From Patescibacteria group bacterium (GTDB lineage: Bacteria; Patescibacteriota; Microgenomatia; UBA10105; UBA927), in contig JBMOPU010000012.1 in the NCBI GenBank assembly GCA_049322955.1, forward strand, positions 147,581-211,580: a stretch of DNA of 64,000 nucleotides, given 5' to 3'. The position numbers and the translations under genes are program-made. Shown piece by piece: positions 12,274 through 36,113 of this stretch (within the stretch, counting starts at the first letter, position 1; the number at the start of each line of letters is the position of its first letter). The notes under the pieces were generated by a model. The model saw nothing but the letters and a program-made list of their open reading frames with translations, had not been told where the DNA came from and did not search any database.

Positions 12274-12301
12274 GATTTTATCCAAAAAAATGTTATATAT
12301 C

Positions 12302-12318: not shown

Positions 12319-12345
12319 CATGAGGTAATATAATATTTGTGCGAT

Positions 12346-15892: not shown

Positions 15893-15904
15893 ATACCTCC
15901 TTTA

Positions 15905-16189: not shown

Positions 16190-16228
16190 ACTTCCTCCTG
16201 AGTAAGTAAAATAAGTCTCTTGACTTTT

Positions 16229-16245
16229 ATCCCCCCAGTGGGGAT
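16229..16245. promoter_or_regulatory. CsoR-operator-like GC pseudo-palindrome ATCCCCCCAGTGGGGAT between a -35 TTGACT (16220-16225) and a -10 TATAAT (16245-16250)
   Basis: The core CCCCCAGTGGGG closely resembles known CsoR operators. It lies in the divergent csoR-copA / permease-copZ promoter region. Confidence 0.55.
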
Positions 16246-16264
16246 ATAATCATCCTACCATGTT

Positions 16265-16279
16265 TTGACACACTGTCAA
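16265..16279. promoter_or_regulatory. perfect inverted repeat TTGACA-CAC-TGTCAA in the same intergenic region
   Basis: Read directly from the sequence. It may be a second operator or a -35 element. Confidence 0.4.
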
Positions 16280-16293
16280 GACTCAGAAACAAT

Positions 16294-17301
16294 ATGCCGA
16301 ATCTTTGGATCATATTTACCACGGGATTGTTTGCAGGAGGGCTCACCTGTATGGCAGTACAGGGAGGGATCCTCACCACGGCCCTCACGAGGGAGGAAGA
16401 GGAGTATCCCCGCGTTTCGCGCGGCATGGGAGTTGCCGTATTTTTAATTGCCAAACTTATTTCTCATGCGCTTCTCGGCGCACTATTGGGATACATGGGA
16501 TCACTTATCGGATTAACACCGAGGGTGCAGGCGGTGGGTATCGCGTTGGCGTCACTTTTTATGGCGGGAACCGCGCTATCGTTTCTTGATGTTCATCCCA
16601 TTTTCCGCTACTTCGTTATCCAACCCCCGCGTTTTCTGACCCGGTTTATCCGGGGGAGGGCAAAAGCGGGCGGCTTATTTGCGCCGGCAGTCATCGGGTT
16701 ATTTTCCATATTTATACCCTGCGGTACCACCCAGGCTATGATGGCCCTTGCCGCCGGCACCGGGAGCCCCTGGTGGGGGATGGCAACCCTTGCGGTTTTT
16801 GTGTTGGGTACGGCGCCATTATTCTTTTTACTCGGTCTTTCCATTGATGTGATAAAAGCGACATTGAAAGATAAATTTGGCGTGGTAGCCGCGACACTCG
16901 TCCTCATCCTTGCAGTGGTGAATTTCAACGCCGCGCTACGTTTATATGGATCGCCGATAACGATAACATCGGCACTCCGCAGCATGTTCTGTACGGTCAC
17001 GTTTTGTACGACCAATCCTGCAACAATGGAGCCGACCACAACTCCGGTTATTACATTTTGGCTCAACGGGTATAAAACGGATAACCCGGTTATTCCCAAA
17101 GGAGAAACGATCACGCTTACCCTCGTCAATAAAAGCGGGAGCGGTTGCGTGCAGGCATTCACCATTCCCGCTTTGGGACTTTCTGAAATCGTGCCGGTGG
17201 GACAGGAGAAGACACTGACGTTTCAGGCGCCACTGGAAGGGGATGAGTTGGCATACAGTTGCAGTATGGGTATGTATGGTGGTACGTTTTATCTCAAATG
17301 A
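16294..17301 (+). CDS. polytopic permease (DUF318/COG0701-like, putative metal transporter) with a C-terminal Cys/Met-rich cupredoxin-like domain
   Basis: Six or more hydrophobic helices carry conserved Cys (LTCMAVQGG; IPCGTTQAM). The C-terminal roughly 110 aa is soluble and beta-rich and ends in YSCSMGMYGG. It is translationally coupled (ATGA) to copZ. Confidence 0.5.
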   Translation: MPNLWIIFTTGLFAGGLTCMAVQGGILTTALTREEEEYPRVSRGMGVAVFLIAKLISHALLGALLGYMGSLIGLTPRVQAVGIALASLFMAGTALSFLDVHPIFRYFVIQPPRFLTRFIRGRAKAGGLFAPAVIGLFSIFIPCGTTQAMMALAAGTGSPWWGMATLAVFVLGTAPLFFLLGLSIDVIKATLKDKFGVVAATLVLILAVVNFNAALRLYGSPITITSALRSMFCTVTFCTTNPATMEPTTTPVITFWLNGYKTDNPVIPKGETITLTLVNKSGSGCVQAFTIPALGLSEIVPVGQEKTLTFQAPLEGDELAYSCSMGMYGGTFYLK

Positions 17302-17504
17302 AAACCACAAAAACCTATCAGATAGCGGGTATGCATTGTGCAAGTTGTGCGATGCTTATCGAGGGAGAGCTTGAAGACCGGGGAATAATTGGGCGTTGCA
17401 GTTTTGCAAAACAAACCCTTGAAGTTGATACCGAGGACGCAGAAGCCGTGGATATGACGGTGGAAGATGCCGTAACAGCGGCGGGATATCGAGTAGAAAA
17501 ATAA
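17298..17504 (+). CDS. copZ: heavy-metal-associated copper chaperone
   Basis: The MKTTKTYQIAGMHCASCA HMA fold motif is present. The start overlaps the upstream stop. Confidence 0.85.
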   Translation: MKTTKTYQIAGMHCASCAMLIEGELEDRGIIGRCSFAKQTLEVDTEDAEAVDMTVEDAVTAAGYRVEK

Positions 17505-19634: not shown

Positions 19635-19675
19635 TATAAATACAAATAGTGAGTACTTTTTATAGAGGAGGCAAT

Positions 19676-20995
19676 ATGCAACAAAATAACCCGTTTGACA
19701 ATGCGATGCAACAACTCGGTAAGGCGCACGCCGTTCTTGCATCTTCAAAAAAGAAAATAAAAAATATCGATCAGAAAGTAGCGGTATTAAAAGAGCCTCA
19801 ACGAATCGTCAACGTGACCCTTCCCGTCACCATGGATAACGGGGAACAGAAAATATTTCAGGGGTATCGGGTGCAGTTTAATAATGCCAGGGGTCCCTAC
19901 AAGGGGGGGATTCGGTATCACCATAACGTCAGCCTTGATGAAGTGAAAGCGTTGTCTTTTTGGATGGCGATGAAATGTGCCGTGGCAGATCTCCCGCTCG
20001 GAGGAGGAAAGGGAGGCATCATCGTCGATCCGAAAGCGCTGTCACAGGACGAACTGGAACGGTTGAGTCGTGCCTACGGTAAGGCGATAGCTGATCTCAT
20101 CGGTCCCGAGACGGACGTACCTGCTCCCGACGTCAATACCAACGGCGTGATTATGGGGTGGATGGTAGATGAATACGTCAAGGCACAAATGAAGAAAGCA
20201 AAACTTTTCGGCGCTACAATATCAGCAAAAAATGCAAAACGATTAAAAGGAACATTTACGGGAAAAGCGATAGCAGACGGGGGGAGCGAAGGACGTGAAG
20301 AGGCAACAGGGCTGGGCGGCTTATTCGTTCTGCAGGCGATTATTAAAAAGCTTAAACTTTCCGGCACCCTCACTGCCGCTGTACAGGGATTCGGGAATGT
20401 CGGTTACAATGTGGCCAAGTTTTTAGATGAAGCGGGAATTCGGGTAGTTGCCGTATCCGACAGTAAAGGCGGCATTTATGTTCCCGAGGGGATAAATCCG
20501 GCGCTCACCCTCGAGTGTAAGAAGAAAAACGGATACCTTGCCGGTTGTTACTGTTCGGGATCGGTATGCGATCTCAAGAAAGGTAAACAACTGACCAATG
20601 ATGCGTTGCTTGAGCTTCCCGTTGATATTTTGGTGCCTGCCGCACTCGAAAACGCCATAACAGGGAAGAATGCGGGCAAGATCAAAGCAAAAGTTGTGCT
20701 TGAAATGGCGAACGGCCCCACGACGCCGGAAGCGGATACCGTGCTCTATAAGAAGGGTATTCCCGTTATACCCGACATATTAAGCAATAGCGGCGGCGTT
20801 ACCGTTTCCGCCTTTGAGTGGGAGCAGAACCTCAAAGGGCAACATTGGACGAAAGCCCAGGTAAATAAGAAGCTCGCAGGAAAAATGGCGTCAGCCGCCG
20901 AAGCGGTATGGCAGGCATCCGTGACTCATAAAACCGACTTGCGAACCGCGGCATTTGTGGTTGCGTTGGAGCGCATTTTAGCTTCAATGGAGTAA
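19676..20995 (+). CDS. gdhA: glutamate dehydrogenase (Glu/Leu/Phe/Val dehydrogenase family)
   Basis: The catalytic region GGIRYHHNVSLDEVKALSFWMAMKCAVADLPLGGGKGG is present. The start is set at the ATG with a GAGGAGG ribosome-binding site. Confidence 0.9.
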   Translation: MQQNNPFDNAMQQLGKAHAVLASSKKKIKNIDQKVAVLKEPQRIVNVTLPVTMDNGEQKIFQGYRVQFNNARGPYKGGIRYHHNVSLDEVKALSFWMAMKCAVADLPLGGGKGGIIVDPKALSQDELERLSRAYGKAIADLIGPETDVPAPDVNTNGVIMGWMVDEYVKAQMKKAKLFGATISAKNAKRLKGTFTGKAIADGGSEGREEATGLGGLFVLQAIIKKLKLSGTLTAAVQGFGNVGYNVAKFLDEAGIRVVAVSDSKGGIYVPEGINPALTLECKKKNGYLAGCYCSGSVCDLKKGKQLTNDALLELPVDILVPAALENAITGKNAGKIKAKVVLEMANGPTTPEADTVLYKKGIPVIPDILSNSGGVTVSAFEWEQNLKGQHWTKAQVNKKLAGKMASAAEAVWQASVTHKTDLRTAAFVVALERILASME

Positions 20996-21044: not shown

Positions 21045-21074
21045 TTGACAATGGGGAGTCGTCACCCATACTAT
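21045..21074 (+). promoter_or_regulatory. sigma70-like promoter TTGACA-18-TACTAT upstream of the first cluster gene; palindrome TCCTATAGGA at 21007-21016
   Basis: Read directly from the sequence. Confidence 0.5.
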
Positions 21075-21110: not shown

Positions 21111-21731
21111 ATGGCTGAAGGATTTGAAAAAACAACATTTCAGGAAGCGATAAGTGAAAGCGCCGTCGGCAAAGCCGTACGGGGAGCTATTTCCGAAGTT
21201 CAGCAAACCAATAAGGAATATTGGGATATACGGCAGGATATAGAGGGCAGAAAGAACGCCTCAGGAAAAGGGGTGTATAAACACTATGTCGAGAACATGG
21301 ATAAGATTCTGCACCACATGTATGCGGGCAAAGAGCTTGGTGTGGTCGGAAAAGTTGCCGAATTTTCCCAAAAAGTAGGAGCGAGAGTAGAGGCGGCGGT
21401 TGTATCTTTCGGTGCGGCAACCCTTGATATCCCGTATAACGTATTAACATGGCTTCCGCGTAAAATGAGCCCCTTCGGGCCGCCCAAGGATGTCTTTAAG
21501 CGATTGGCGCTTGCCCGTTTTGATATCAAGCTCGGACTTCGTGCCGCGGGGGCGGGTATTATGCGAGGGGAACTTGGGGTAGCGAAAGCCGTTCGCACCG
21601 GAGCAGAAGCGGTGTTGAGCGCTCCTGAGATTGCCGTACGTATGGCAAAGAAAAAGGTTGATCGCGTGGTGAACTGGATCAAAAGCCCGTTTGCCGAAGG
21701 CAAACCGTCAACACCCAAAGCGAGGCCATAA
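21111..21731 (+). CDS. hypothetical basic Gly/Ala-rich protein (cluster protein P1)
   Basis: Preceded by an AGGGAGG ribosome-binding site. It contains a GxxxG-rich segment (GLRAAGAGIMRGELGVAKAV). No known domain was recognised. Confidence 0.65.
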   Translation: MAEGFEKTTFQEAISESAVGKAVRGAISEVQQTNKEYWDIRQDIEGRKNASGKGVYKHYVENMDKILHHMYAGKELGVVGKVAEFSQKVGARVEAAVVSFGAATLDIPYNVLTWLPRKMSPFGPPKDVFKRLALARFDIKLGLRAAGAGIMRGELGVAKAVRTGAEAVLSAPEIAVRMAKKKVDRVVNWIKSPFAEGKPSTPKARP

Positions 21732-21756
21732 TAGTGTTTTATGAAAGGAGTTTTGT

Positions 21757-22086
21757 ATGGATGACAAACTGCGCGCCGTGGTAACGAGAGTCGAATTGTC
21801 AAAGCTTACCGAAAGCGAGAAAGAAGACGTCTATACCGCGCTTGCCGAGGGACTGCAGTCTACCGTCTGGCCGATTCTTATTAAATACATGCCGAAAGAT
21901 CAGCTCGATGATTTGGCGGCAAATCCGACCAAGGTCAATCTGGAAACATACGGCAAACTGATCGAAGATTCCGTAAAAGACGGACAAGCGTTAAAAGAAA
22001 TCGAAGCATTGATGCAGGATATCTTAACGGCTGTCGATAAGACCCTTACGGAGCAGGGAGTTCCCGAACTTCCGAGCACCGGCTAA
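21757..22086 (+). CDS. small acidic partner protein S1, paralog of the 22773 and 37397 genes
   Basis: It shares the motif LSxSEKExxYTxxAEGLQSTVWPxxxKYMP with the ORFs at 22773 and 37397. Confidence 0.7.
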   Translation: MDDKLRAVVTRVELSKLTESEKEDVYTALAEGLQSTVWPILIKYMPKDQLDDLAANPTKVNLETYGKLIEDSVKDGQALKEIEALMQDILTAVDKTLTEQGVPELPSTG

Positions 22087-22089
22087 CCT

Positions 22090-22737
22090 ATGACGGAAGT
22101 AACACCACCGGTTGAAACTCAAAAGCTTTCCGGAGCGGCAAGGATTGTTGAAAGCCTCAAAAAATGGTCGCACGACCATCTGACGCTCCAGGGTAGAGAG
22201 GACAATATCTATCTTAAAAAATACGCGCAGATCGCGGAAAAACTTCCCCAAGATATGTCTGAAAATCATATGGCGCTTCTTGAGATGCGACTGCGAAAGG
22301 ATGCGCACAGTGCCGCGGTCGGCTCCATTATCGTAGACGCATTGATGACGGGAGGGGTGCTTGTCGGGGCGGGTGCGCTATTAAAGAAAGTTGATTTTGC
22401 ATTTCCCAAGTTTGAACGAAAAATACGGACGGCACCAAGGCCCGTGCCGCCACGAGAACAAGTCGTGCCGCCACCGCCAAAAGCAAATGAACCTGCCAGG
22501 TGGAGTCTGTTTGCCTTTGCCAAAAAAGTAAGTCGTATCCTTGAAGGGCATGGTGAAGATGTCGATATGGACAAAGTGGTAGCGGGTGCCGATACAATGC
22601 TTGATAAAGCGGCAAAAGTGAAATGGGATGCCCCTGCTGATTGGATGGAGAAGGGGATTGATAAAGCCGGAAAGGGTCTTCAGAAACTCTGGGGATGGCT
22701 TGACGGTTCCTTAGGCAAACTTGCGGACAATATGTAA
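22090..22737 (+). CDS. hypothetical protein P2 with a glycine-zipper segment
   Basis: GGVLVGAGALL is followed by a Pro-rich linker. The start is 4 nt after the S1 stop. Confidence 0.6.
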   Translation: MTEVTPPVETQKLSGAARIVESLKKWSHDHLTLQGREDNIYLKKYAQIAEKLPQDMSENHMALLEMRLRKDAHSAAVGSIIVDALMTGGVLVGAGALLKKVDFAFPKFERKIRTAPRPVPPREQVVPPPPKANEPARWSLFAFAKKVSRILEGHGEDVDMDKVVAGADTMLDKAAKVKWDAPADWMEKGIDKAGKGLQKLWGWLDGSLGKLADNM

Positions 22738-22772
22738 GCCTAAGTGTGCTACTATAAATTTTAGGAGGAACT

Positions 22773-23084
22773 ATGGAAGAAACATTGAAGGCGATCATTG
22801 CAAAAATTGAAAAATCCCAACTATCTGAAACCGAGAAAAATGAGCTCTACACCGTGATTGCTGAAGGACTTCAGAGCACCGTTTGGCCCGTTATGGTAAA
22901 ATATATGCCACAGCAAGACCTAGAGTATTTGACCGCTGATCCGAAGTCACGCATGACCGTCGAAAGTTATGCAAAGCTTATAGGGGATGTGGTGAAAGAC
23001 CCTGAGGCATTAGCGGCGATTGAACAGGCGGCGGGCAGTGTGCTTGCCAATGTTGAGTCGGTTTTAGCAGAGGAAAATATATAA
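22773..23084 (+). CDS. small acidic partner protein S2 (paralog of S1)
   Basis: LSETEKNELYTVIAEGLQSTVWPVMVKYMP. Confidence 0.7.
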   Translation: MEETLKAIIAKIEKSQLSETEKNELYTVIAEGLQSTVWPVMVKYMPQQDLEYLTADPKSRMTVESYAKLIGDVVKDPEALAAIEQAAGSVLANVESVLAEENI

Positions 23085-23109
23085 TTGTTTGTACATGAAG
23101 GAGGTTCTT

Positions 23110-23937
23110 ATGACCGAAGTAGGAATGTCACCTGAGCGACAAGGATGGTTTGCGGGGCTCAAAGAAAAAGTCCGCAAGTCTTTTACCGTCCAGGGCGCGA
23201 AAGAAAAATTTTATCAGAACAACAGCGAACTTATCGCCAAAGCAACGGCAAACCTTTCCCCCGAGGATAAGCAGGCGGCATATGCCCAGATTGAACAGGA
23301 TGCGCTATCTTCGGCCAAAGTCGATGTTGCAACCCATTGGGGTGCCCTAGTATTGGGTACCACCGTTGCCGGTCTCGGCGGTGCGCTCCTAAACGACAAA
23401 GTCCGCGGGAGAGTAGGCGAGATGGGTAACTTCGGCAAAAAAGTTGCTGGTCTCGGTGACAAGGCAAAAGACGGGCTGATGCGGCTGGTCAGCCGTTTCA
23501 ATTTCCGAAGAGAGGGGAGTAGTAAGGGCCCCATTAATGTGGATGCAGTTTCCGAATCTATCAAGTCTGCCGCCGGTTATAAGCAACGGGTGGATGCGCT
23601 TACCCAGATGATCAACAGTGGAAAATATCAGGGCGAGGCATTGACCCGACTGCGAAGGAAACAAAGGTTGGCAATGCTAGATTTACGACGTGCCGACGCC
23701 TTGCTTTCCGGTCGTCCCGAGCTTAACAAAGTGCAGGAATTGTCCCGGCAAATCCAAGAAGCGATAAAGGCCGGCAAACCGGTTGATGATTTGGTGCGGC
23801 GACGAACTGACATGCAAAACGGATTGAATGATATTTTGTCTGCACGGAGAAAAGCCGGATTCAAAGGTTTGGAACGGGGCGACGTAAGCAACTATCAGAA
23901 AAAGATAGATGCCATAAAGGCTCGCAACAGATCCTAA
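23110..23937 (+). CDS. hypothetical protein P3 (glycine-zipper plus coiled-coil-like C-terminus)
   Basis: A GAAGGAGG ribosome-binding site precedes it. It contains VLGTTVAGLGGALL. The C-terminal half is Arg/Lys-rich and helical. Confidence 0.6.
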   Translation: MTEVGMSPERQGWFAGLKEKVRKSFTVQGAKEKFYQNNSELIAKATANLSPEDKQAAYAQIEQDALSSAKVDVATHWGALVLGTTVAGLGGALLNDKVRGRVGEMGNFGKKVAGLGDKAKDGLMRLVSRFNFRREGSSKGPINVDAVSESIKSAAGYKQRVDALTQMINSGKYQGEALTRLRRKQRLAMLDLRRADALLSGRPELNKVQELSRQIQEAIKAGKPVDDLVRRRTDMQNGLNDILSARRKAGFKGLERGDVSNYQKKIDAIKARNRS

Positions 23938-24032
23938 CGTCCTATTCTTCACTTTGTTGCCATACGCTGGATCAGCATATCTTGGGAAGTTATCTGTGTT
24001 TGTGGTGATGGAACAGCTCGTGCGTTACGAAG

Positions 24033-24062
24033 ATACACGAAAATACGCGTAAATACGCTACA
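24033..24062 (+). repeat. three tandem imperfect 10-bp repeats (ATACACGAAA / ATACGCGTAA / ATACGCTACA) overlapping the -10 TACAAT of the ABC gene promoter
   Basis: Read directly from the sequence. Confidence 0.5.
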
Positions 24063-24071
24063 ATAGTGGAT

Positions 24072-26297
24072 ATGACCGCAGAAGCGATCGGCAAACGACA
24101 GGAAGTTCCCCGTATTCAGGAATCAGGGCTGAACTTTTCTCCCGAATCGTTGGTTGCCGCGGGAAAACTCGCCTCAGAGATTGCCGCCAATACCCCCCCT
24201 GAAGCTTCCGACGTTTCCCAAATGGTAAAGACGATAGGCAGTGATCTGGCCAAAGAGGGACTTCCCATAGCAAAAGAAGACTATAAAGCCGTGATGAAGC
24301 AAGCGGAGGCCGCGTATCTTCGTCACCGCGGACAGCAAACGGTTCCCGAGCATACCCCCGACATTGAAACCGTCTCTCCGATAGATCTTGCCGAATACAG
24401 GGATGTGATGGGGGAGCTCTTTAAAACATATAAATTAGGAAGCGGCAGTTGGCAGACGGTGACCGGCATTTATGGAGCTACCGACCTTATCGGCAACGTG
24501 ATCGGCGGGTACCAGACGAAACCGTGGATAAGCGAAGAATCCCGGAAGGCATTTACGGAAAAAGTAGAAGGGGGACTTGAGCTTCTTCAGGCACGGCAAA
24601 CGCCGTTACAGGAGCTGGGCCGCACCCTCAAGCGTCTGCCCGCCGAAACAAAGAAAAAAGCCGCCGGGCTACTCCTTTCTGCTACCTGGCCGTGGGTCGC
24701 AGGAACGGCTCATTGGTTTATCGGCAGACAAGCGGAAAAATTTGCGCATAAACTCATCGTGCGGGAGGGAATGAATTTACAGAAGGCCGTCAATACCCGT
24801 ATCGCCGAATCGTTATTTATGCGGGATTTTGAGTTTCTTCATGACAAACCCGCGGGAGAAATCATGGAGATTGTTAACAACGGCAAATTATCGACCATTG
24901 ATCTGGTTCGTGTTACGTACACGGAGTTTCTTCCGACGATTTTGGGCATACTAAGCCAGTTGCCCCGCCAATATGTTACCGGAAAATTGGAATTTATGTC
25001 TTCACTTATCAAAATGCCGTTTCTTTTAATGCGCAGTGAACAAAACGCGAAACTTATGCAAGAAAATAGAGCGGCTGAACTTGCCAAAATGGATAAAGTG
25101 AACACGAAGCTCATGACCACGCTTGCCGGTCTTGAATCGGTGCGAACATCAGGAAATGCGACCGGCGGATCGGTAAGTATGCTTGATCTGTTAACGGAAC
25201 GTGACACGGTGGCGGGGAAGGGTCTTCGCCAAAAACTCGCGGGACAACGGCAGATGAATATGTTCTTTGACGTGATGGATGTCGCCCTGCCGTTTATGAG
25301 CGAGGCGTTGCAGTTTAATAAACAACGTCCACCGGGCAAGCTGTCGGGGGAGGGAGCATTTAACTTCGGTGTCGATGCACTGTCACGGGTGATTAACTCC
25401 AAGAATCAACAGATGGAGCTTCGTGCGGCATTTGCCGGTTTGACGAGACTCTATGTCGATAACATTATTCCCGATATTCAGGATATCAAGCGCATGGAGG
25501 AACTCCTCGGCAAATACGACGCGTTAGATAGGCCAAACGGCCCTCGGGAACGGGCTCGGGTTGCGGTGGGGAAGTTGACGAACACGGATATTCGTGTCGA
25601 GAACCTTTCTTATAAAGGCATCATCAATAACGTTTCCCTGGATATCCCGCAAGGATCATTCGTGACCATTAAGGGCGAGTCCGGAACGGGGAAAACGACA
25701 TTCATCCGTAATCTTGTCGGTCTTTACACGCCGGAATCGGGATCGGTGACGATTGGCGGCGTCCCCATCGACGGCATAAAAAAGTACGGAACCGAATCGG
25801 TATCGAGTATTGTCGGCTATGCCAATCAAAACCCTCAGATTCTTGAAGGCATGACTCTCAAGGAAAACTTGTTGTTATGGTCCCAACAGCAGGTTCCCGA
25901 TGCGGTACTGACGAAAACACTTAAGGATCTCCGTTTGGAGCATCTTACCGATAGACTTGATAAAGCGACCAAGCATTTTTCGGGCGGTGAACTTCGGCGT
26001 ATCGGCATAGCCCGGGCGCTTCTGAAAAATCCGAAAATACTTGTGCTTGATGAACCGACCGCAAGCCTTGATGAAGCGTCAGCACAGCAGGTCATGGATA
26101 TCATCCAGCGTTTGCGAATAGAGCGTCCTGATATGACGGTGGTTGCCATTACCCATGACCCGGTATTTGAAAATATCTCCGAGCGTATCATAGATTTTTC
26201 ACAGATAAATAAGTCAAGGTCATCGGAAGCATACGGAAACCGTCAGCTCAAAGATCACCAGATATTGGAAGCAATTGCCCGGCCGAAGCGGCCGTGA
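24072..26297 (+). CDS. ABC-exporter-like protein: divergent, weakly hydrophobic N-terminal domain fused to a C-terminal ABC ATPase
   Basis: Walker A (GESGTGKTT), the signature FSGGELRRIGIARAL, and Walker B (ILVLDEPTASLD) are present. The N-terminal 500 aa carry exporter-TMD-like coupling-helix motifs (FEFLHDKPAGEIMEIVNNGKLSTIDLV) but show little hydrophobicity. Confidence 0.82.
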   Translation: MTAEAIGKRQEVPRIQESGLNFSPESLVAAGKLASEIAANTPPEASDVSQMVKTIGSDLAKEGLPIAKEDYKAVMKQAEAAYLRHRGQQTVPEHTPDIETVSPIDLAEYRDVMGELFKTYKLGSGSWQTVTGIYGATDLIGNVIGGYQTKPWISEESRKAFTEKVEGGLELLQARQTPLQELGRTLKRLPAETKKKAAGLLLSATWPWVAGTAHWFIGRQAEKFAHKLIVREGMNLQKAVNTRIAESLFMRDFEFLHDKPAGEIMEIVNNGKLSTIDLVRVTYTEFLPTILGILSQLPRQYVTGKLEFMSSLIKMPFLLMRSEQNAKLMQENRAAELAKMDKVNTKLMTTLAGLESVRTSGNATGGSVSMLDLLTERDTVAGKGLRQKLAGQRQMNMFFDVMDVALPFMSEALQFNKQRPPGKLSGEGAFNFGVDALSRVINSKNQQMELRAAFAGLTRLYVDNIIPDIQDIKRMEELLGKYDALDRPNGPRERARVAVGKLTNTDIRVENLSYKGIINNVSLDIPQGSFVTIKGESGTGKTTFIRNLVGLYTPESGSVTIGGVPIDGIKKYGTESVSSIVGYANQNPQILEGMTLKENLLLWSQQQVPDAVLTKTLKDLRLEHLTDRLDKATKHFSGGELRRIGIARALLKNPKILVLDEPTASLDEASAQQVMDIIQRLRIERPDMTVVAITHDPVFENISERIIDFSQINKSRSSEAYGNRQLKDHQILEAIARPKRP

Positions 26298-26312
26298 CGA
26301 TAGCTTGCGAAA

Positions 26313-27374
26313 ATGGAAAAAACTGCCCATACTGAAGCTATGAATGATTTTTCGCCGGAAACACCCGAATCGCGAATATCCGTGTCACCTGAATTAGGGC
26401 AACGGATAGGGGAAGCTAAGTCGGGGATTGAAGAAAATAGGGACATGCCGGCTTCAGAAATAGCCACCAACACCGAACAAATGGGGCTTCTTGCTTCTTT
26501 GGGCGGGCTGTATAAGGATATGGCCAAAAAGAAGCTCGGTATCGCATTCAAAGATGTGAAAGCGGCGCTTGCCATTGTTCCCTTTGTTCCTCTCGCCAGC
26601 GAAGCGATAGCGGTAGCAAAGGGAGGGGCAAAATTGGAAAGTATTGCTACGAAAGTGCATAAGGCCGCGTATGCGGAGTCCGCCGCAATCAAGGCTCAAA
26701 AAACGGCAAATAAAGCGGAGCGTTGGGCAAAATGGTTTCGCAAAAGCGAAAAAGCGCAACAGCGATTGGGTGCGGCGAAGGACGCACTGGGAATCGCAAA
26801 CGCTGAAGCATCCACCGCCACTGCCGCGGCAAAGAAGGCTTTGGAACGGGGATTGAAACAGGGAGTGCCTGTTGAGGGATCGGCCTCACGATTCGTGCGC
26901 AAACATATTGTTCATGACATCCGTGATGCCGACTATGTACTTAATTACGAAAAAGCGATAAAAAGCGGTAAAGCGTTGACCGATGCGGAAAAAATACTTT
27001 CCACGGCAACGGGGGAAGTTGCGGCAAAAACGTTTGGGGAAAAAGCGGTTCATAAGGCAAAAACAATCGGCAAACATACGCTTCTTCACTCGCTAGGCCC
27101 CATCATCGATCCGACGCCGAATGTCCCACATGCGGTTGTGCTGGGCTCATTTGGTGCGGAATTATTCGGTCAAGTATGGGCGGGACTTATTCCGCCCGTC
27201 TGGCAGTATCTTCACAACCGATATGAAGACGTCAAAGTCGGGTGGGATACGGCGGTCAAAGCCAAAGATATTATCACAACGCATTTTTCTCAAAAAGTCG
27301 ATAAACTGAAAACACCGGAAGTGGCAAAAGCCGCCGAGGTTTTTGTGCCGTCAGATGCTCCCGCGGCACCATGA
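26313..27374 (+). CDS. hypothetical Ala/Lys-rich helical protein P4
   Basis: A 353-aa protein with amphipathic helical repeats. Its start is 13 nt after the ABC stop. Confidence 0.6.
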   Translation: MEKTAHTEAMNDFSPETPESRISVSPELGQRIGEAKSGIEENRDMPASEIATNTEQMGLLASLGGLYKDMAKKKLGIAFKDVKAALAIVPFVPLASEAIAVAKGGAKLESIATKVHKAAYAESAAIKAQKTANKAERWAKWFRKSEKAQQRLGAAKDALGIANAEASTATAAAKKALERGLKQGVPVEGSASRFVRKHIVHDIRDADYVLNYEKAIKSGKALTDAEKILSTATGEVAAKTFGEKAVHKAKTIGKHTLLHSLGPIIDPTPNVPHAVVLGSFGAELFGQVWAGLIPPVWQYLHNRYEDVKVGWDTAVKAKDIITTHFSQKVDKLKTPEVAKAAEVFVPSDAPAAP

Positions 27375-27378
27375 TGCT

Positions 27379-27651
27379 ATGAATAAAAAAATCGCGCTTG
27401 TCACCCTCATTGAAGCGAGTATCATCCTGTCGGATGAAGATAGGCTTATGTTGCTTGATTTGGTGCCAGGACTTACCGAAAAACAGGTGGATGCGCTGGG
27501 CAAGTTTTTCGCCCTGGAGCGCAAATTTGTTTTGAGCAATGAGGATGATGTAAAACAAAAGATTGAATCATTGCTTACCGGTCTGGATCGACAGGATACC
27601 GATACTGTGTATGTAGGGAGCGGGAATGCATTCGACCAAGGAACAAAATAA
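27379..27651 (+). CDS. small acidic partner protein S4
   Basis: A 90-aa protein starting 2 nt after the P4 stop. Its N-terminal LSDEDRLMLLDLV motif resembles those of the other small partners. Confidence 0.55.
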   Translation: MNKKIALVTLIEASIILSDEDRLMLLDLVPGLTEKQVDALGKFFALERKFVLSNEDDVKQKIESLLTGLDRQDTDTVYVGSGNAFDQGTK

Positions 27652-27699
27652 CATAAGAAGTTAACTATTACTTTGTCAGTTTATTCATGAGTCGTACCT

Positions 27700-28593
27700 A
27701 TGGCAGAGAGTATCATCAAAGACTTTAAAGGAAAAAACGATTGGGTCTATGTCGGTAAAAGTGAAGCCCCGAAACCTTCCGAGAAAAAAGCTGACACGTT
27801 ATTTCATCAGTATATGCAGGAAGTGTTTGACGTGGCGGCTCCCGTGATGATCGGCGAGCTTGACGGGGCGGCAGGGGCGCAAGCGGCCCTTGCCTCTGCA
27901 ACGCTTTCGCTTGCAGACAAAGCGCATACCGACGCCACTTCAACCGCCTCCCTCCCGGATAAATCAACATTTGCCAAACGATGGCTCGCGCTGGAACAGC
28001 GGGTCGGCAATGATGATCACCAAAATAGGTTGGGAAAGCTTCTGACCAGTTTTGTATATATGGGCGGGTCATTTGCTATGAACCTGGGGAGCGAAGTGGT
28101 TGCCGATGTATTGTATCGCGGCAAATCGAAAGTACCGCTCCCTCTGGGACGTTCCATCAACATCTCAAAAGAAACGGGTAATCAGCGCATGCTTGACGCA
28201 GGCTGGGAGTATCTCACCGATTATGGGGTCGAAAAAACGGTGGACTGGTCGGCTCAGAAGCTGGCCAATCGGGAAAATATCGGCTTTGTTTCGCCGCTCT
28301 CGCGTGCGATCAGTAAAATCGGCAACACGATTATCAATGCCACGAGAAATTTTGATGAACATAATTTTTCCACGGCCGTAAAACGCTCGCTCTTAAGCCC
28401 GGGATTTATCGAAGGGGCGTTTCGTTTTGCAGGTGCGCTTCCGGGCGGCGGATTTATCAAGGAATTGTACGGCAAAGCCAATAAACAAATCATGAAAGGG
28501 GAAGGAGTCATTCCCTTGGGAGCTGATCTTGCGTTTAACATGATATTTGCCAAGGTGCTTTACAAGATGCAACAGGGAGGAGCAAAGCCATAA
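27700..28593 (+). CDS. hypothetical protein P5
   Basis: A 297-aa protein with GELDGAAGAQAALASA and a C-terminal Gly-rich region. Confidence 0.6.
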   Translation: MAESIIKDFKGKNDWVYVGKSEAPKPSEKKADTLFHQYMQEVFDVAAPVMIGELDGAAGAQAALASATLSLADKAHTDATSTASLPDKSTFAKRWLALEQRVGNDDHQNRLGKLLTSFVYMGGSFAMNLGSEVVADVLYRGKSKVPLPLGRSINISKETGNQRMLDAGWEYLTDYGVEKTVDWSAQKLANRENIGFVSPLSRAISKIGNTIINATRNFDEHNFSTAVKRSLLSPGFIEGAFRFAGALPGGGFIKELYGKANKQIMKGEGVIPLGADLAFNMIFAKVLYKMQQGGAKP

Positions 28594-28911
28594 ATGGATA
28601 TATCGATACAGCAATTTTGTGATCAGGTACTGCGAAGTCGGGCTCTTTCTCAGGAACAGAAAGAACTGCTCGTTGCCGATCCTGAAGCATTGCCGTCCTC
28701 ATACCGTGAGGAGGTTGCGGCCATTCTCTCGGCATTTGACGACCAATCGATGCAACGGGAGGAGTACCTACGAAATGCCGTGGAAGACCGTATGCGGCAG
28801 TTTGAAAAAAAACTTGAAGAAGAGGGGACTGATGCGCCGACGACGCATGCATTACTCAAAAAGGCAAAAGCGTTGAGTGCATCATTGTTTCCCGTAAAGC
28901 ACGTTGTTTGA
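28594..28911 (+). CDS. small acidic partner protein S5
   Basis: Its start abuts the P5 stop. It carries LSQEQKELLVADPEAL. Confidence 0.55.
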   Translation: MDISIQQFCDQVLRSRALSQEQKELLVADPEALPSSYREEVAAILSAFDDQSMQREEYLRNAVEDRMRQFEKKLEEEGTDAPTTHALLKKAKALSASLFPVKHVV

Positions 28912-28947
28912 CGGCGCAGGGAATCTCCTATACGCTAGAAGAAGAGT

Positions 28948-29934
28948 ATGCAACACCATCATGAAATACCGCAGTGGCACCCGCCCCAAGAAGCGATGCC
29001 CGCCAAGGAAGGCAATTTGACGAAGGAGCAGTCGCTCTTTCAACGGCTGGGAGTAGCCGTAGCGGAAACGGTCAAAGATATCCGTGATGCAAATGATATG
29101 GCGAAACGAAAGTTTGATGGAGATAGCGCGCTGATGCGCGTAGCTCGTGGTGCGCTGACCGGTGCGGTTGGCGCGGGGCTTGAACTTGCCACGGATGATA
29201 TGTTTAGTAAGGCCTGGCGGGGGGAAGGACCTATCTTCGAGCGATTTATCATGGGTGAAAATACCGGCAAAAAACTCGCAAAACTTTCGGAACAACATCC
29301 CAGGATTTCCCATTTTGTGAAAGAAGGTACCCAAGATGTTGCACTCGCGGCGCTTTACAACTTTATCGCCTATAGGTCACAGCCGATTTTTACCCAAGTC
29401 GAATCACCTCATGTGCTTCGGTCGCTCACCGCGGATGCTTTGGAAGCCGGATTTATCAACAGCATCCCGGCGGAAATGAAAACAGCGGTTTCTGCCATAA
29501 ATCAACCCAAAGTGGATAGGTGGCAACATCAGCGTCGTCGTTTTCGGCGCCCTAAGCAAAAAAAATATCCCTTGGGGGGTGAAGGTTCGGAGATGATGAT
29601 GAATGATTTTTTCAAAAAAAAGCCTTCAGCAGATATGCAAGCCGCACGAATATCGGGGAAAAATACCCCAGGAACTGTCCCCGAGAGGCAGGGGGTATTG
29701 GGAAATGTCTTTAATCTTTCCAATCCCGTTACGCAACTAGGTCTTGAGATGGTATGGTCGGGCATGACCACCTTTGCAAAAAACTTTAGTGAACTGAGGA
29801 AAACACGCAAAGTGAATGAATGGTCGGGTGGCAAAGCAACGGTATCGGGAAAAGGAGAGAACGTGTATTACGGGAATTCGCATGGGAAATACACAAAGAG
29901 AAGGGGGTATGATGAGCGACTTGACGATCTATAA
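28948..29934 (+). CDS. hypothetical protein P6
   Basis: A 328-aa protein with GALTGAVGAGLELA and a basic C-terminal tail. Confidence 0.6.
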   Translation: MQHHHEIPQWHPPQEAMPAKEGNLTKEQSLFQRLGVAVAETVKDIRDANDMAKRKFDGDSALMRVARGALTGAVGAGLELATDDMFSKAWRGEGPIFERFIMGENTGKKLAKLSEQHPRISHFVKEGTQDVALAALYNFIAYRSQPIFTQVESPHVLRSLTADALEAGFINSIPAEMKTAVSAINQPKVDRWQHQRRRFRRPKQKKYPLGGEGSEMMMNDFFKKKPSADMQAARISGKNTPGTVPERQGVLGNVFNLSNPVTQLGLEMVWSGMTTFAKNFSELRKTRKVNEWSGGKATVSGKGENVYYGNSHGKYTKRRGYDERLDDL

Positions 29935-30202
29935 AAAGATACAAAATACCAAGCTGTTTAGCGATGCGCAGAAAGTGGCGCTTCTTGTTGCCATTGTTGA
30001 TGCCACCGATGAGGATAAAGCAAAACTGGAAGCCGGCATTGACGAATTCGACGCACGTTACGACAACGCCATTAAAAAGCATACGGCACAGATACAGTCA
30101 CTCCTGGGACACACGATGAAGGACCTTACCCCGGAAGAGAAAAAAGCTCAGGAAACGGCATTGCGATCGATCAGAGCTGGCTTTGGACTTCTGACCTCGT
30201 AA
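29909..30202 (+). CDS. small acidic partner protein S6
   Basis: The ribosome-binding site AGAAGGGGG lies inside the 3' end of P6, giving a 26-nt overlap. The protein carries LFSDAQKVALLVAIVDATDEDKAKLEAG. Confidence 0.55.
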   Translation: MMSDLTIYKKIQNTKLFSDAQKVALLVAIVDATDEDKAKLEAGIDEFDARYDNAIKKHTAQIQSLLGHTMKDLTPEEKKAQETALRSIRAGFGLLTS

Positions 30203-30286
30203 CCACACAAGCCTATTGCTATAGGACACTTCTTGTGGTATACTTCACGATAGTACCCAAGCATTGTGTTTGGGTTTGTTGTATCT

Positions 30287-31012
30287 ATGTCAAAAGAATC
30301 ACAACCAACCAGAGCCTATACGCCGGCGGAACAAGGGTTCCAGCGCCTGCTCATTCGCGAACAGAAGCATGAATCCCAGCCGGGTGACGGTCTCCGACGA
30401 CTGGGAATCAATTCCTCGCTCCTGATCGGATCAACCGCTCTTGATCTTGCCGAAAGTCATCTTGTCGATGCCGTGATTCGAAATCCCATGCATGATAGGA
30501 TTCATCAAATTAAGGAAAAGGGACCCAACTTTACCGAACAGGCAAAGCGGGCACAAGGCGTGCAATTTGCCGCCGAATTCGTTGAAGAGTGGGCATCCGA
30601 CAGTATTTATGCCAATATGGCAAATGCATGGGTTCGTGCCATGACCGGTATGGATGATGCTAAGTATGTTTCCGAAACCGCCGCATTCCTTGCGGAGTGG
30701 GGGAACGTCATTTCCCAGGTATTTTTGGCAGACAGACTGTATGGGAAGACAAAGACACATCACGGACATACGGTGCCGCAAACATATGGCAAGGTGAAAC
30801 TTGCCTACGCGTCGGCTGACTTTTTGAATCCCGTCAACGTCGAAGCGGCGATCCGGGTGATGGAAGAAGTACCCGTTATCGGGAAAGCAGTCTCCTGGAT
30901 GCATGATAAGACGGATCATTTGCTGGAAACCGCCGCCGTTCGGCTCGGGAGCGGCATTGCCGGAAAAGGTATTCTCGGCTATCATATCGGACGAAACGTA
31001 AAAGCGTTATAA
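30287..31012 (+). CDS. hypothetical protein P7
   Basis: Preceded by a CTATAGG element and a TATACT -10. The C-terminus is GSGIAGKGILGYHIG. Confidence 0.55.
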   Translation: MSKESQPTRAYTPAEQGFQRLLIREQKHESQPGDGLRRLGINSSLLIGSTALDLAESHLVDAVIRNPMHDRIHQIKEKGPNFTEQAKRAQGVQFAAEFVEEWASDSIYANMANAWVRAMTGMDDAKYVSETAAFLAEWGNVISQVFLADRLYGKTKTHHGHTVPQTYGKVKLAYASADFLNPVNVEAAIRVMEEVPVIGKAVSWMHDKTDHLLETAAVRLGSGIAGKGILGYHIGRNVKAL

Positions 31013-31033
31013 ACGGCTTTTCATCTTTTTGCT

Positions 31034-31903
31034 ATGACAGCAGAGACACTAAGCGTACGAATACAGTATCCGCAGGATAATCCCATCTCGGCTGAGAAAA
31101 CCTCCTCTCAGGATGGCGCCGCGATCTGGAAGAAAGCATATGCGGAATCCCGACAAAAGCATTGGCAACAGGTATTCCAAGTCGGTGACTATTCCCCCTA
31201 TGACAAAGCGCGCAAGCTCCCGCAGGGTACTGCGCTTCGTGAGGCACTCTACGAATCTCTCACCGATCCGATTTCTTTTGTAACGCATATCGGCGAACAT
31301 ATCCGTAAGGTCGATACCGATCTTCGCGGCGGAAAAGATATCGGGGGTGCGAAAGAGCGATGGGAGCGAGTCGGGGCATTTGCCAGTATGGCGGTGCTCT
31401 TTACCGCATTTGATTACGCAACAAGTAAGCCATTTGAGCGATTTTTTCCCATGATAAAGAATAAGGTATTAACCCCTGAGGAACTTCGTCTGAATGCGCG
31501 GATGGGGGCGATGAAAAAGATCCTTGACGTCATGAACGATAAATACGCGACGGCATTAGGCAATATGCTGGTAGAGAAAATTTCCGGCAAGCGGGGATTT
31601 ATCCATGAAGTGGCGGATAAGGGTGCAGACACCATCCAATCGGGATTTGAGGAAACCAATGACTTGGTCAACGGCGCAACACTGGAAAGTTATATGCGGA
31701 TTTTTTCTCAGGTACCGATTGTGGGAGCGTTATTTGAGCAGGGGATGACCCGTCTTTCCCTGTTGCAGGAAAAGTCATCGCTCCACACCGCTACGGGCAA
31801 AATGCTTTATATGGCGCTTGGCGTATTTATCCGAGATAATCGAAAAGCAGACAAAATGGATGGCGCTTCTTTGGCAGGACTTATTGCCAGGACAATCCTT
31901 TAA
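31034..31903 (+). CDS. hypothetical protein P8
   Basis: A 289-aa protein with the N-terminus MTAETL. No domain was recognised. Confidence 0.55.
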   Translation: MTAETLSVRIQYPQDNPISAEKTSSQDGAAIWKKAYAESRQKHWQQVFQVGDYSPYDKARKLPQGTALREALYESLTDPISFVTHIGEHIRKVDTDLRGGKDIGGAKERWERVGAFASMAVLFTAFDYATSKPFERFFPMIKNKVLTPEELRLNARMGAMKKILDVMNDKYATALGNMLVEKISGKRGFIHEVADKGADTIQSGFEETNDLVNGATLESYMRIFSQVPIVGALFEQGMTRLSLLQEKSSLHTATGKMLYMALGVFIRDNRKADKMDGASLAGLIARTIL

Positions 31904-31927: not shown

Positions 31928-31956
31928 TTGACAGTTTTTTATCCGCTGAGTACAAT
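31928..31956 (+). promoter_or_regulatory. sigma70 promoter TTGACA-17-TACAAT heading the tRNA-Ala/23S/5S unit or a short leader RNA
   Basis: Near-consensus hexamers with 17-nt spacing. Confidence 0.6.
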
Positions 31957-32105
31957 ACCTTTTGCCTTTGTTCGCCAATTATCGGCGATACGGAATGCGG
32001 AGGCAAGACTTTTCTTTTTCATGAGAATCACCACTTCATACAAAACCGACCTTTTTGGGCGACGTTTGCGTGTGATGTAGAACTTCTTACAAGGAGAGAG
32101 TCCCG

Positions 32106-32133
32106 ATCCCGCATAAAAGGCGGGATTTTTTTA
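32106..32133 (+). terminator. hairpin (ATCCCGC-N7-GCGGGAT) followed by a T7 run: an intrinsic terminator or boxB-like leader hairpin
   Basis: Read directly from the sequence. It lies between the promoter and tRNA-Ala. Confidence 0.5.
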
Positions 32134-32211: not shown

Positions 32212-32284
32212 GGGCCCGAAGTTTACCTGGTTGAACGCTTCATTTGCAATGAAGAGGCAGGCGGTTCGACTCCGCCCGGGTCCA
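32212..32284 (+). tRNA. tRNA-Ala(UGC)
   Basis: A manually folded 73-nt cloverleaf: acceptor GGGCCCG/CGGGTCC with the G3:U70 Ala identity pair, anticodon loop TTTGCAA, T-loop GGTTCGACT, discriminator A. CCA is not encoded. Confidence 0.88.
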
Positions 32285-32349
32285 CCGATGTTCTTGTATC
32301 GGGAGTAGCTACATATATATGTATATACTCTCGCGACAAGAGCGCGAGT

Positions 32350-32362
32350 TGCTCTTTAACAA
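32350..32362 (+). promoter_or_regulatory. boxA antitermination element TGCTCTTTAACAA in the tRNA-23S spacer
   Basis: A near-exact match to the bacterial rRNA-operon boxA consensus. Confidence 0.75.
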
Positions 32363-32529
32363 TATTGCCAAATGACTTCTTGTAAGACAGGTGAAATTCC
32401 TGCTCTACAAGAATTGAAAGTAATGAAGTAATGAGGTAGTTGCCGCGTAAGGGGGAGTGAATCCCACTTATCGTGGCCATTTTTAGTTGAGGGAACAAGG
32501 GTCGTCTTCGAGACGAATCTTTTGTTCTC

Positions 32530-35840
<3,311 letters not shown>

Positions 35841-35967
35841 GGAACAAAGGACGTTTTTTGCCGAGAGGCAAAAACACCTTGTTTCTCTTGGCGAAAATGA
35901 CACGAAAAGTCGGTCATTCTCCCTTATGTTGCAATTACCTTTATAATAAGAAAAGATTTTATCGTTG

Positions 35968-36086
35968 AGCCTTTCGGTCTCTTACGCGATGTGGTACCAC
36001 CCTTTCCCATTCCGAACAGGGAAGTGAAACACATTAGCGCCAACAATACTCGTTTCGCAAGGAACCTGGAAGATAGGTCGAGGCCG
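35968..36086 (+). rRNA. rrf: 5S ribosomal RNA (approximate ends)
   Basis: Conserved blocks CCCATTCCGAACAGGGAAGTGAAAC and TAGCGCCAACAATACT are present. The length is about 119 nt. Confidence 0.75.
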
Positions 36087-36113
36087 GGGGACTCAACGAT
36101 AAAACGGCAAATT

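Follow-up and report, generated by a model that had tools for sequence, protein, structure and literature searches.

A conserved gene array in Microgenomates sets small acidic proteins beside larger helical proteins around an apparently exporter-derived ABC ATPase without predicted membrane spans

We describe a gene cluster that fits no described kind of system, found in a 64,000-nucleotide stretch of a Patescibacteria genome (assembly GCA_049322955.1, contig JBMOPU010000012.1, positions 147,581 to 211,580 of the forward strand; hereafter the window, in whose own coordinates all positions are given). Judged from sequence, the cluster is apparently a lineage-restricted, vertically inherited system of Gottesmanbacteria and other Microgenomates, in which larger helical proteins are encoded beside small acidic ones on both sides of a gene, g6, for an ATP-binding cassette (ABC) protein. 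The conserved order of the genes, their coupling and their co-distribution lead us to regard the cluster as one functional unit around an ABC ATPase with intact motifs. The most surprising element is the ABC protein itself, a de-hydrophobised exporter homologue that appears to have descended from an exporter, keeping its ATPase motifs and losing its hydrophobic spans.

Gene content of the cluster

Fourteen co-directional genes, g1-g14, occupy positions 21111-31903 of the forward strand, between gdhA (19649-20995) and a tRNA-Ala/23S/5S unit (32212-36089). The original prediction, which was made from this sequence alone, had drawn the same 14 genes between gdhA and the rRNA genes, and the gene calls of three near-identical public contigs agree; from those calls we adopted the starts of g5 (23110), g6 (24072), g8 (27379), g12 (29912) and g13 (30287). 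The extent first given for the cluster, 21111-31903, holds for those 14 genes and falls short of the whole, because three more genes of cluster families, h1-h3, sit directly 3' of the 5S rRNA gene and 5' of rpsA, so that the system straddles the rRNA genes and reaches 37714. Families carry F labels and were defined in this analysis by BLAST clustering of the open reading frames called in all loci; the larger proteins are called clients for brevity, after the role proposed for them below. The features are as follows, with lengths in amino acids (aa) and isoelectric points (pI).

21045-21074, forward strand: sigma-70-like promoter candidate just 5' of g1 (TTGACA, 16/18-nt spacer, a 10/12 consensus match only)
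21111-21731, forward strand: g1, 206 aa, pI 9.9; family F19, large putative client with an N-terminal region related to F27
21757-22086, forward strand: g2, 109 aa, pI 4.4; F3 small acidic putative partner, motif LTESEKEDV at residue 17
22090-22737, forward strand: g3, 215 aa, pI 9.1; family F9
22773-23084, forward strand: g4, 103 aa, pI 4.4; F3 small acidic putative partner, motif LSETEKNEL at residue 17
23110-23937, forward strand: g5, 275 aa, pI 10.2 (open reading frame opens at 23089); family F10, with the Gly/Ala-rich segment WGALVLGTTVAGLGGALLN
24072-26297, forward strand: g6, 741 aa; homologue of ABCB-type half-transporters
26313-27374, forward strand: g7, 353 aa, pI 9.3, 17% Ala; family F4, next after the last ABC gene in the core order
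27379-27651, forward strand: g8, 90 aa from the true start MNKKIALV, pI 4.6; F2 small acidic putative partner, motif LSDEDRLML
27700-28593, forward strand: g9, 297 aa, pI 9.1; family F0, first of three paralogues, all-helical
28594-28911, forward strand: g10, 105 aa, pI 5.0; F8 small putative partner (F2-related), its start abutting the g9 stop
28948-29934, forward strand: g11, 328 aa, pI 9.7; family F5
29912-30202, forward strand: g12, 96 aa, pI 6.1; F2 small putative partner, 23-nt overlap with g11, motif FSDAQKVAL
30287-31012, forward strand: g13, 241 aa, pI 7.2; family F0, second paralogue
31034-31903, forward strand: g14, 289 aa, pI 9.0; family F0, third paralogue
32105-32127, forward strand: terminator-like hairpin between g14 and the tRNA-Ala/23S genes (8-bp stem, 5 GC pairs, TTTTT tail)
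36178-36651, forward strand: h1, 157 aa; family F7, glycine zipper G46/G50/G54; beyond the rRNA genes
36672-37394, forward strand: h2, 240 aa; family F40, client-type N-terminal region and C-terminal extended glycine zipper
37397-37714, forward strand: h3, 105 aa, pI 4.4; third F3 small acidic putative partner in the window, motif LSETDKNDV

From g1 to g14 the intergenic gaps are 25, 3, 35, 25, 134, 15, 4, 48, 0, 36, -23, 84 and 21 nt, so the earlier description of gaps of 0-40 nt with some overlaps is right for most of them, including those of 0 and -23 nt, and wrong for the three that exceed 40 nt (134, 48 and 84). Between paired genes the spacing is tight (3, 4, 0 and -23 nt), and these genes are apparently translationally coupled; g3, which starts 3 nt past the g2 stop, has no Shine-Dalgarno sequence. 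The transcription unit likely ends at the hairpin at 32105-32127, and promoter-like sites are not commoner in the cluster region than in shuffled sequence.

GC content and skew are uniform across the cluster and its flanks. A mobile element or prophage was considered and rejected on this uniformity and on the conserved position between gdhA and the 23S gene. We also rejected the idea, suggested by nearness to the rRNA genes and rpsA, that these are ribosome-associated basic proteins: a basic pI is the genomic norm here, and a terminator-like hairpin stands between the cluster and the rRNA genes.

Gene order in related genomes

A search with the N-terminal 500 residues of g6 found 18 loci in 185,579 species-representative genomes and 11 in 241 million metagenome records, nearly all from Gottesmanbacteria, Woesebacteria or other Patescibacteria. 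One architecture repeats in about 17 of the roughly 30 related loci from genomes and metagenomes, nearly all of them Gottesmanbacteria or other Microgenomates. Its 5' part runs trx, trxB, F12, gdhA, then alternating F3 small and large client genes (the latter drawn from families F19, F9, F10, F21, F27, F32, F36, F25 and F40) and an optional F7-F2 pair; its 3' part continues with one to three ABC genes, F4, F2, F0, F8, F5, an optional F2, F0 and F0, and ends at tRNA-Ala/23S rRNA. The original prediction had seen an ordered, paired array with a dedicated ABC ATPase and had set synteny and pairing in related genomes as the test of that view; the recurrence of this order, which is far beyond chance, strongly confirms it.

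Adjacency is specific to families. The gene preceding F2 is F4 (17 times), F7 (8) or F5 (6), and F0 precedes F8 in all 14 cases. On the upstream side a large client is the next gene after F3 in 29 of 31 cases, 10 of them F10, a family that lies just 5' of the ABC genes in relatives, and gdhA directly precedes F3 in 6 loci. For these two reasons the upstream pairs read better as small-then-large, and downstream of the ABC gene the order is large then small (F4 then F2, F0 then F8). The pairing first proposed, a large gene followed by a small acidic one, thus keeps its five acidic proteins and its order downstream of g6, and is better reversed upstream.

Order and adjacency hold across loci whose ABC proteins range from 80% to 26% identity. 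One locus (L004, ABC 36% identical) holds the same families in permuted order with a second ABC gene, and an ABC relative from Uhrbacteria (L022) was excluded as its neighbourhood is unrelated. Many relatives (L009-L011, L013, L025, L027 and L032) hold two or three ABC paralogues in tandem (about 720, 640 and 745 aa), in some cases with a 269-aa F22 gene between them; this arrangement suggests hetero-oligomeric ATPases. Insertions seem to have a hotspot in the upstream half of the array. In L005, L015, L016, L020, L029, L030 and L033 small/large pairs are set apart by toxin-antitoxin modules (HEPN/nucleotidyltransferase, ParE/Phd, PIN, DUF4258/DUF2283), and L004 and L005 have genes for an AAA_14/DUF4143 ATPase and an SNase after the ABC gene.

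Several cluster-bearing metagenome-assembled genomes that serve as GTDB representatives (L007, L009, L011, L012, L014, L015, L017, L019 and L021) are titled "uncultured Gammaproteobacteria bacterium" (TPA_asm). That label is probably wrong, because their gene content is Gottesmanbacteria-like and their trxB and gdhA are 73-86% identical to those of the window.

The cluster evolves much faster than its flanks. Measured against the window proteins across six genomes, the flanking trxB and gdhA keep that 73-86% identity; the ABC protein falls from 80% to 26-45%, g7 from 75% to 23-40%, g11 from 69% to about 30% and g1 from 88% to 25-30%, while g5 goes from 71% to 33% or becomes undetectable and g3 has zero matches covering at least half its length. 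Such rapid divergence relative to trxB and gdhA is what would be expected of interaction-surface proteins. The F3 small proteins keep 54-90% identity, and their better conservation than that of their large neighbours favours an adaptor or chaperone over a cognate immunity protein.

The families are also very rare. All 14 proteins were scanned against Pfam, g1-g11 except g4 against NCBIfam and nine of the non-ABC proteins against PHROGs; no scanned non-ABC protein gave a credible match, and the sole match was the ABC domain of g6 (PF00005), which bears out the earlier remark that only the ABC ATPase could be recognised. A Pfam scan of h1-h3 was empty, the F3 and F0 profiles found nothing meaningful among PDB sequences, and no specific fold match was found for g9. 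Among 5.8 billion proteins F3 has 114 members, zero of them annotated, and full-length homologues of g6 number only about 23 (36-100% identical), the nearest named relatives being Candidatus Gottesmanbacteria. F0 counts 80 proteins. F2 has about 23 members among 1.84 billion representative sequences in an exhaustive phmmer search (25 hits, two spurious); its two top matches were dropped as low-complexity or TPR repeat artefacts. Overall, family sizes range from about 25 to 115 sequences among the billions searched. A literature search found no description of such a cluster, which is limited negative evidence.

An exporter-type ABC protein without hydrophobic spans

The nucleotide-binding domain of g6 matches PF00005 at residues 521-666 (E 7e-32) and has conserved ATPase motifs throughout: Walker A, Q-loop, signature, Walker B with the catalytic Glu, and H-loop, with K541, Q586, SGGE637-640, DE660-661 and H695 invariant in 18 homologues. 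It is nearest to ABCB1/ABCB4 (the best PDB sequence matches), TAP and ComA. An AlphaFold2 model (mean predicted local distance difference test score 70.6) shows an N-terminal helical extension (residues about 24-119), six long helices (about 124-479) and the nucleotide-binding domain (about 500-712). MsbA is the best Foldseek match, although it does not rank meaningfully above other exporters.

Homology to peptide and protein exporters (MsbA, TAP, PCAT1, McjD, HlyB/PrtD) spans both domains. Profile-profile alignment with exporters covers membrane-domain helices 3-6 and the nucleotide-binding domain (E 3e-51), and the intracellular-loop signature NxRIAxSLFMRDFEFLHDKPAGEI is conserved; the Pfam family ABC_membrane (PF00664) was not detected in g6. 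The N-terminal extension of about 120 aa gave no match and showed no relationship to any of the partner families. It occupies the site that the substrate-recognising peptidase domain takes in peptidase-containing ABC transporters (PCATs); no Peptidase_C39 match was found in g6, whose N-terminus is all-helical. With half-transporters of the type IV fold g6 shares a six-helix exporter-type domain, the intracellular-loop signature and all ATPase motifs; it differs from them in having no hydrophobic spans, in its N-terminal domain of about 120 aa, in the undetected PF00664 and in neighbours that are always of the F families.

What sets the family apart is its hydrophobicity, which we assessed by Kyte-Doolittle (KD) hydropathy of 19-mers at a cutoff of at least 1.6, by Hessa-type insertion free energies (dG) and by column-wise KD, all of them crude scales rather than a topology predictor. 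A run of large, strongly hydrophobic proteins encoded at 45584-54311 of the window (9-17 predicted spans, including PMT and PMT_2 glycosyltransferase-like proteins on the reverse strand) provided internal controls. Segments passing the KD cutoff number 0-1, and are marginal, in 35 of 35 ABC paralogues from 21 loci; most of the 23 canonical exporters have 4-9 (range 1-9), and membrane proteins of the window have 7-17. Windows with dG at or below 3 are wholly lacking in 23 of 23 members of the ABC family (median minimum +6.3) and number 3-6 in canonical exporters (median minimum -1.0). In membrane-equivalent columns mean KD is 0.46 in the ABC family versus 1.78 in canonical exporters, and charged residues make up 15% versus 5%; in cytoplasmic-loop columns the two groups track each other. 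The tandem ABC copies of relatives are likewise all without hydrophobic spans. Read from the sequence, short hydrophobic tips of 12-13 residues persist on the g6 helices equivalent to transmembrane helices TM3/TM4 and TM1/TM2. We found no natural soluble or span-less exporter-fold ABC protein in the literature, a weak and limited negative.

The small acidic proteins

The five small proteins of the main array (90-109 aa) are acidic (g2 4.40, g4 4.38, g8 4.57, g10 5.03, g12 6.08) in a window whose background open reading frames have a median pI of 9.1 and fall below 6 in only 9% of cases; family medians are 4.5 for F3 and 4.9 for F2. No small family has a hydrophobic segment at any locus. The motif first read in them, L-S-x-x-[DE]-K-x-x-L, is met in its strict form only by g4. 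A relaxed version, [LF][ST]xx[DEQ][KR]xx[LVIM], is found in all five at residues 16-20 and in h3 as well, and in relatives in 19 of 25 F3, 23 of 27 F2 and 2 of 9 F8 proteins, at about residue 14-17 in F3 and F2; the background rate is 0.02 hits per 100 aa. This relaxed motif looks like the hydrophobic-staple and capping-box start of a predicted second helix.

All-against-all comparison, which had been recommended at the outset, found BLAST similarity within the window only for g2/g4 (45% identity) and, weakly, for g13/g14. Profile comparison and transitive BLAST links added F2 with F8 (g8 and g12 with g10; hhalign probability 96%), the F0 trio (g9, g13 and g14) and the N-terminal regions of g3 and g5 (F9 with F10). 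Common ancestry of F3 and F2 was considered and could not be demonstrated: hhalign gives 1.3% (9.9% trimmed), and only the N-terminal 25 or so residues align.

Two F3 domains are fused in tandem within single open reading frames in L012 (5919-6701) and L023 (7529-8167), followed by two F36 paralogues in the first locus and one in the second. These fusions would fit partners that dimerise with 1:1 stoichiometry. Sequences and alignment show that W-x-G is absent from all the small proteins; a V-W-P is conserved in F3, and Trp is missing altogether from g8, g10 and g12.

The larger proteins

The larger proteins (157-353 aa) have polar N-termini. Most are basic, as had been noted, with a pI of at least 9, but this is not distinctive given the background median, and g13 is neutral. 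At the profile level hhalign connects the N-terminal regions of several upstream client families (F19 with F27 97%, F9 with F10 96%, F32 with F36 91%, F10 with F21 82%, F26 with F36 80%) over about 65-115 aligned columns, about 65 aa in the case of F9 and F10. In F9, F10, F21, F25 and F36 the N-terminal region is followed by a weakly hydrophobic Gly/Ala-rich segment and then by a variable C-terminus. Thus g3 has an N-terminal helical region of about 80 aa, a marginally hydrophobic Gly/Ala-rich stretch at residues 80-98 (IIVDALMTGGVLVGAGALL) and a variable C-terminus. A start of the form M-[AST]-[ED], at the N-terminus or no more than 25 residues from the start of the open reading frame, occurs in 61 of 122 clients, compared with 4 of 42 housekeeping neighbours and 1 of 61 small proteins; it could be a recognition or processing signature.

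The original prediction called these proteins glycine-zipper proteins, and for g1-g14 that label is overstated. Strict GxxxG counts in all of them equal the expectation from composition-matched shuffles, and the true extended zippers are in h1, h2 and F7: h1 and the F7 proteins of relatives show them visibly, and h2, with 8 GxxxG (p=0.002), is the only significantly enriched protein. The Pfam glycine-zipper families Gly-zipper, Rick_17kDa_Anti and Bacteriocin_IIc did not match g1-g14 or h1-h3. Among g1-g14, g3 and g5 alone hold a short, marginally hydrophobic Gly/Ala-rich segment. Over 19-residue windows the Hessa-type dG is 2.7 for h2, 2.9 for g3 and 4.0 for g5, values that approach insertability, with membrane proteins of the window at -0.2 to -1.9 and cytoplasmic controls at 5.6-8.8. 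Across all loci F0, F5, F19 and F22 are devoid of hydrophobic segments.

What the cluster might do

We tentatively propose that the cluster carries out ATP-driven handling of chaperoned helical client proteins at the cytoplasmic face of the membrane. The large helical proteins would be the clients, each kept in the cytoplasm by an adaptor or chaperone of its own, the small acidic helical partner, and in some of them a marginally hydrophobic Gly/Ala-rich hairpin might insert into the membrane on demand. F3 partners would serve the variable upstream clients, and F2/F8 partners the conserved downstream clients F4, F0, F5 and F7. Working as a dimer, or as a hetero-oligomer in genomes with two or three paralogues, the ABC protein would draw on ATP binding and hydrolysis to remove clients from their partners; delivery, assembly or release would then follow on the cytoplasmic side of the membrane. 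In a further reading, which we hold as possible and rather doubtful, the ABC protein would be a natural descendant of an ABCB exporter that has left the bilayer and become soluble or peripheral. Its ATP-driven work would be that of a clamp for the loading, unloading or assembly of amphipathic helical proteins, which it would receive from two acidic adaptor families.

In favour of the proposal, conserved acidic partners stand beside clients whose N-termini are in several cases related and whose C-termini vary, which follows the logic of adaptor/chaperone-substrate arrays. Counted with this are the recurring gene order with its family-specific adjacencies, the close spacing of paired genes, the motif shared by the partners, the F3 fusions, the M-[AST]-[ED] start of many clients, the fast divergence of the cluster, and the exporter homology of the ABC protein with its intact motifs and N-terminal extension. 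Arrays of that kind in other bacteria, namely the class I/II chaperones of type III secretion systems (T3SS), the LXG-Lap pairs of type VIIb secretion systems (T7SSb) and the EspG-PE-PPE sets of ESX systems, likewise couple acidic helical proteins of about 100 aa to larger neighbours, with similar N-termini and variable C-termini in the clients, a better conserved partner and a dedicated ATPase in the cluster. Here, however, the ATPase is an ABC protein and not of the FtsK/EssC or FliI/InvC type, the cluster encodes no membrane channel, and no T3SS or T7SS apparatus genes were found in the window. The small proteins had no sequence match to the CesT/SycE, Lap or WXG100 families (Pfam, PDB sequences), and FtsK_SpoIIIE was absent from the Pfam and NCBIfam scans, as were HlyD, OEP and RTX, the type I secretion (T1SS) families, for all cluster proteins. 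The earlier conclusion that the cluster could not be tied to T1SS, T7SS, bacteriocins or polymorphic toxins is upheld, since at least one defining feature fails in each. The effector/chaperone or substrate/adaptor reading, which it had offered among others, is compatible with the data and stays unproven.

Several observations weigh against handling of chaperoned clients at the membrane. No cluster protein has a canonical transmembrane helix by the hydrophobicity scales, coarse as these are, nor a signal peptide-like N-terminus as read from the sequences; the "membrane" domain of the ABC protein scores as soluble-like in 35 paralogues, and no membrane conduit is evident. Since neither the ABC protein nor its partners have membrane spans, a conventional secretion conduit is not encoded in the cluster, and the original idea of an exporter is weakened accordingly, the ABC protein and nearly all its partners being without spans. 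F0 and F5, having no hydrophobic segment at all, are perhaps structural parts and not clients. Finally, it is from gene order alone that we infer that small and large proteins physically pair, and the roles of client and adaptor, together with any translocation or membrane insertion, are putative.

The main alternative explanation, which we consider rather unlikely, is a cytoplasmic machine with no transport function. The exporter-derived ABC protein would have turned into a clamp or motor driven by ATP, either soluble or peripheral; the helical F4, F0 and F5 proteins and their partners would be structural subunits, and the lineage-specific apparatus would be intracellular or sub-membrane, for example an attachment or cytoskeletal structure. 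Such an origin would recall the new machines that Mollicutes have built out of housekeeping ATPases. An ABC family without a transmembrane-competent segment (23 of 23; dG windows 0 versus 3-6), with a mean KD of 0.46 versus 1.78 and three times more charge in its membrane columns, would suit such a machine, as would the hydrophobic segments missing from F0, F5, F19 and F22 and the lack of signal peptides. So would the vertically inherited position and the downstream genes, which keep their order and their number of copies (three F0 paralogues) as subunits of a complex would. Yet the hydrophobic tips on the ABC protein and the marginally insertable segments of g3, g5 and h2 suggest some membrane contact, the upstream clients are variable and fast-evolving, which would be unusual for structural subunits, and the literature offers, as a weak negative, no natural soluble protein of the type IV exporter fold. 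ABCE/ABCF, SMC/Rad50, UvrA and SufC resemble g6 in being ABC ATPases that apparently act outside the membrane and perhaps do mechanical work, but they have no exporter-type six-helix domain, whereas g6 keeps one that is homologous to transporter membrane domains.

Large genes that alternate with small ones next to an ABC gene also recall toxin/immunity or bacteriocin arrays, in which the large proteins would be membrane-active toxins, the small ones their cognate immunity proteins and the ABC protein a toxin exporter or a means of self-protection. We find this improbable. It would account for the Gly-zipper segments in F7, h1, h2, g3 and g5, for the variable upstream set with toxin-antitoxin modules interspersed in some relatives, and for the resemblance of the ABC protein to the bacteriocin exporters McjD, PCAT1 and ComA. 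In particular, the contact-dependent Caulobacter bacteriocin CdzC/CdzD, exported by a type I system (with CdzAB and CdzI), and class II bacteriocins exported by PCATs also set glycine-zipper proteins, here F7, h1 and h2, near an ABCB-type gene and small companions. But the small proteins of the cluster are 54-90% identical while their large neighbours diverge, the opposite of co-variation, and they are soluble and acidic, whereas membrane-active bacteriocins are normally countered by membrane immunity proteins. Family scans detected no toxin domain and no C39 peptidase; no double-glycine leader was seen, though leaders were not specifically searched for. The downstream half has the same order in every species compared, and the cluster is chromosomal, syntenic and without a composition shift. 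In contrast to Cdz and the class II bacteriocins, the cluster has no HlyD-type adaptor or C39 peptidase by family scans and no evident leader peptide; its proteins are 150-400 aa and not 40-100, most of the large ones are not zippers, and their companions are soluble, acidic and conserved rather than membrane immunity proteins. The toxin/immunity arrangement that had been suggested for the locus is therefore weakened, F3 being conserved while its neighbours diverge and no toxin domain being detected.

A role in lipid acquisition or distribution seems to us very doubtful. In bacteria of the candidate phyla radiation (CPR), which lack lipid biosynthesis, the ABC protein could be a peripherally docked, MsbA-like flippase or extractor serving a lipid-auxotrophic cell, and the Ala/Lys-rich helical proteins could be apolipoprotein- or phasin-like carriers. 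The top Foldseek position of MsbA and the amphipathic, Ala/Lys-rich, helical character of the cluster proteins can be counted for it. However, MsbA is not meaningfully above other exporters, sequence and profile searches gave no specific similarity to lipid-binding families, and the system occurs in one small clade, whereas lipid dependence is CPR-wide.

That an ordinary ABC transporter gene merely sits among unrelated lineage-specific hypothetical genes is hardly credible: the partners are all of unassigned function and CPR genomes are rich in orphan genes, but order and family-specific adjacency persist at ABC identities from 80% to 26%, the genes appear translationally coupled, and the ABC subfamily and its partner families share loci and a narrow clade while all being very rare in large databases.

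Gottesmanbacteria are ultra-small bacteria of groundwater, and all organisms in which the cluster was seen are uncultured; for so small a genome the cluster is a large investment. CPR genomes are about 1 Mb, and the means by which these bacteria attach to and exploit other cells are largely unknown; some 17 conserved, fast-evolving genes amount to more than 1% of the genome, which makes the cluster a strong candidate for lineage-specific cell biology. If an exporter fold with active-type ATPase motifs has indeed lost its spans, it would be an unusual natural repurposing of a membrane-protein fold and would widen the known range of ABC mechanochemistry. If the ABC protein proves to be a soluble or peripheral clamp served by adaptors, the cluster would represent a new class of non-transport ABC machine together with a CPR-specific apparatus for protein delivery or host interaction. 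The two small-protein families, for their part, are new candidate adaptor/chaperone families with concrete pairs.

Other features of the window

The rRNA unit that the cluster straddles (32212-36089) has the order tRNA-Ala(TGC)-23S-5S. No 16S gene occurs anywhere in the window, which means that the rRNA genes are unlinked. Within the 23S gene (32527-35844) is an intron of group I (35193-35543; Rfam RF00028, 58 bits), and a near-consensus promoter-like site (11/12) lies at 31928-31956, past g14 and 5' of tRNA-Ala. Upstream of the cluster, at 11800-17500, is a copper-handling module with a P-type ATPase carrying a heavy-metal-associated (HMA) domain (12996-15347, reverse strand), a DUF305 protein, a CsoR-like repressor, a DsbD_2/cupredoxin protein and a small HMA protein; genes for thioredoxin and thioredoxin reductase come next. 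Two more tRNA-Ala genes (anticodons GGC and CGC), with 84 nt between them, are found at 57516-57745.

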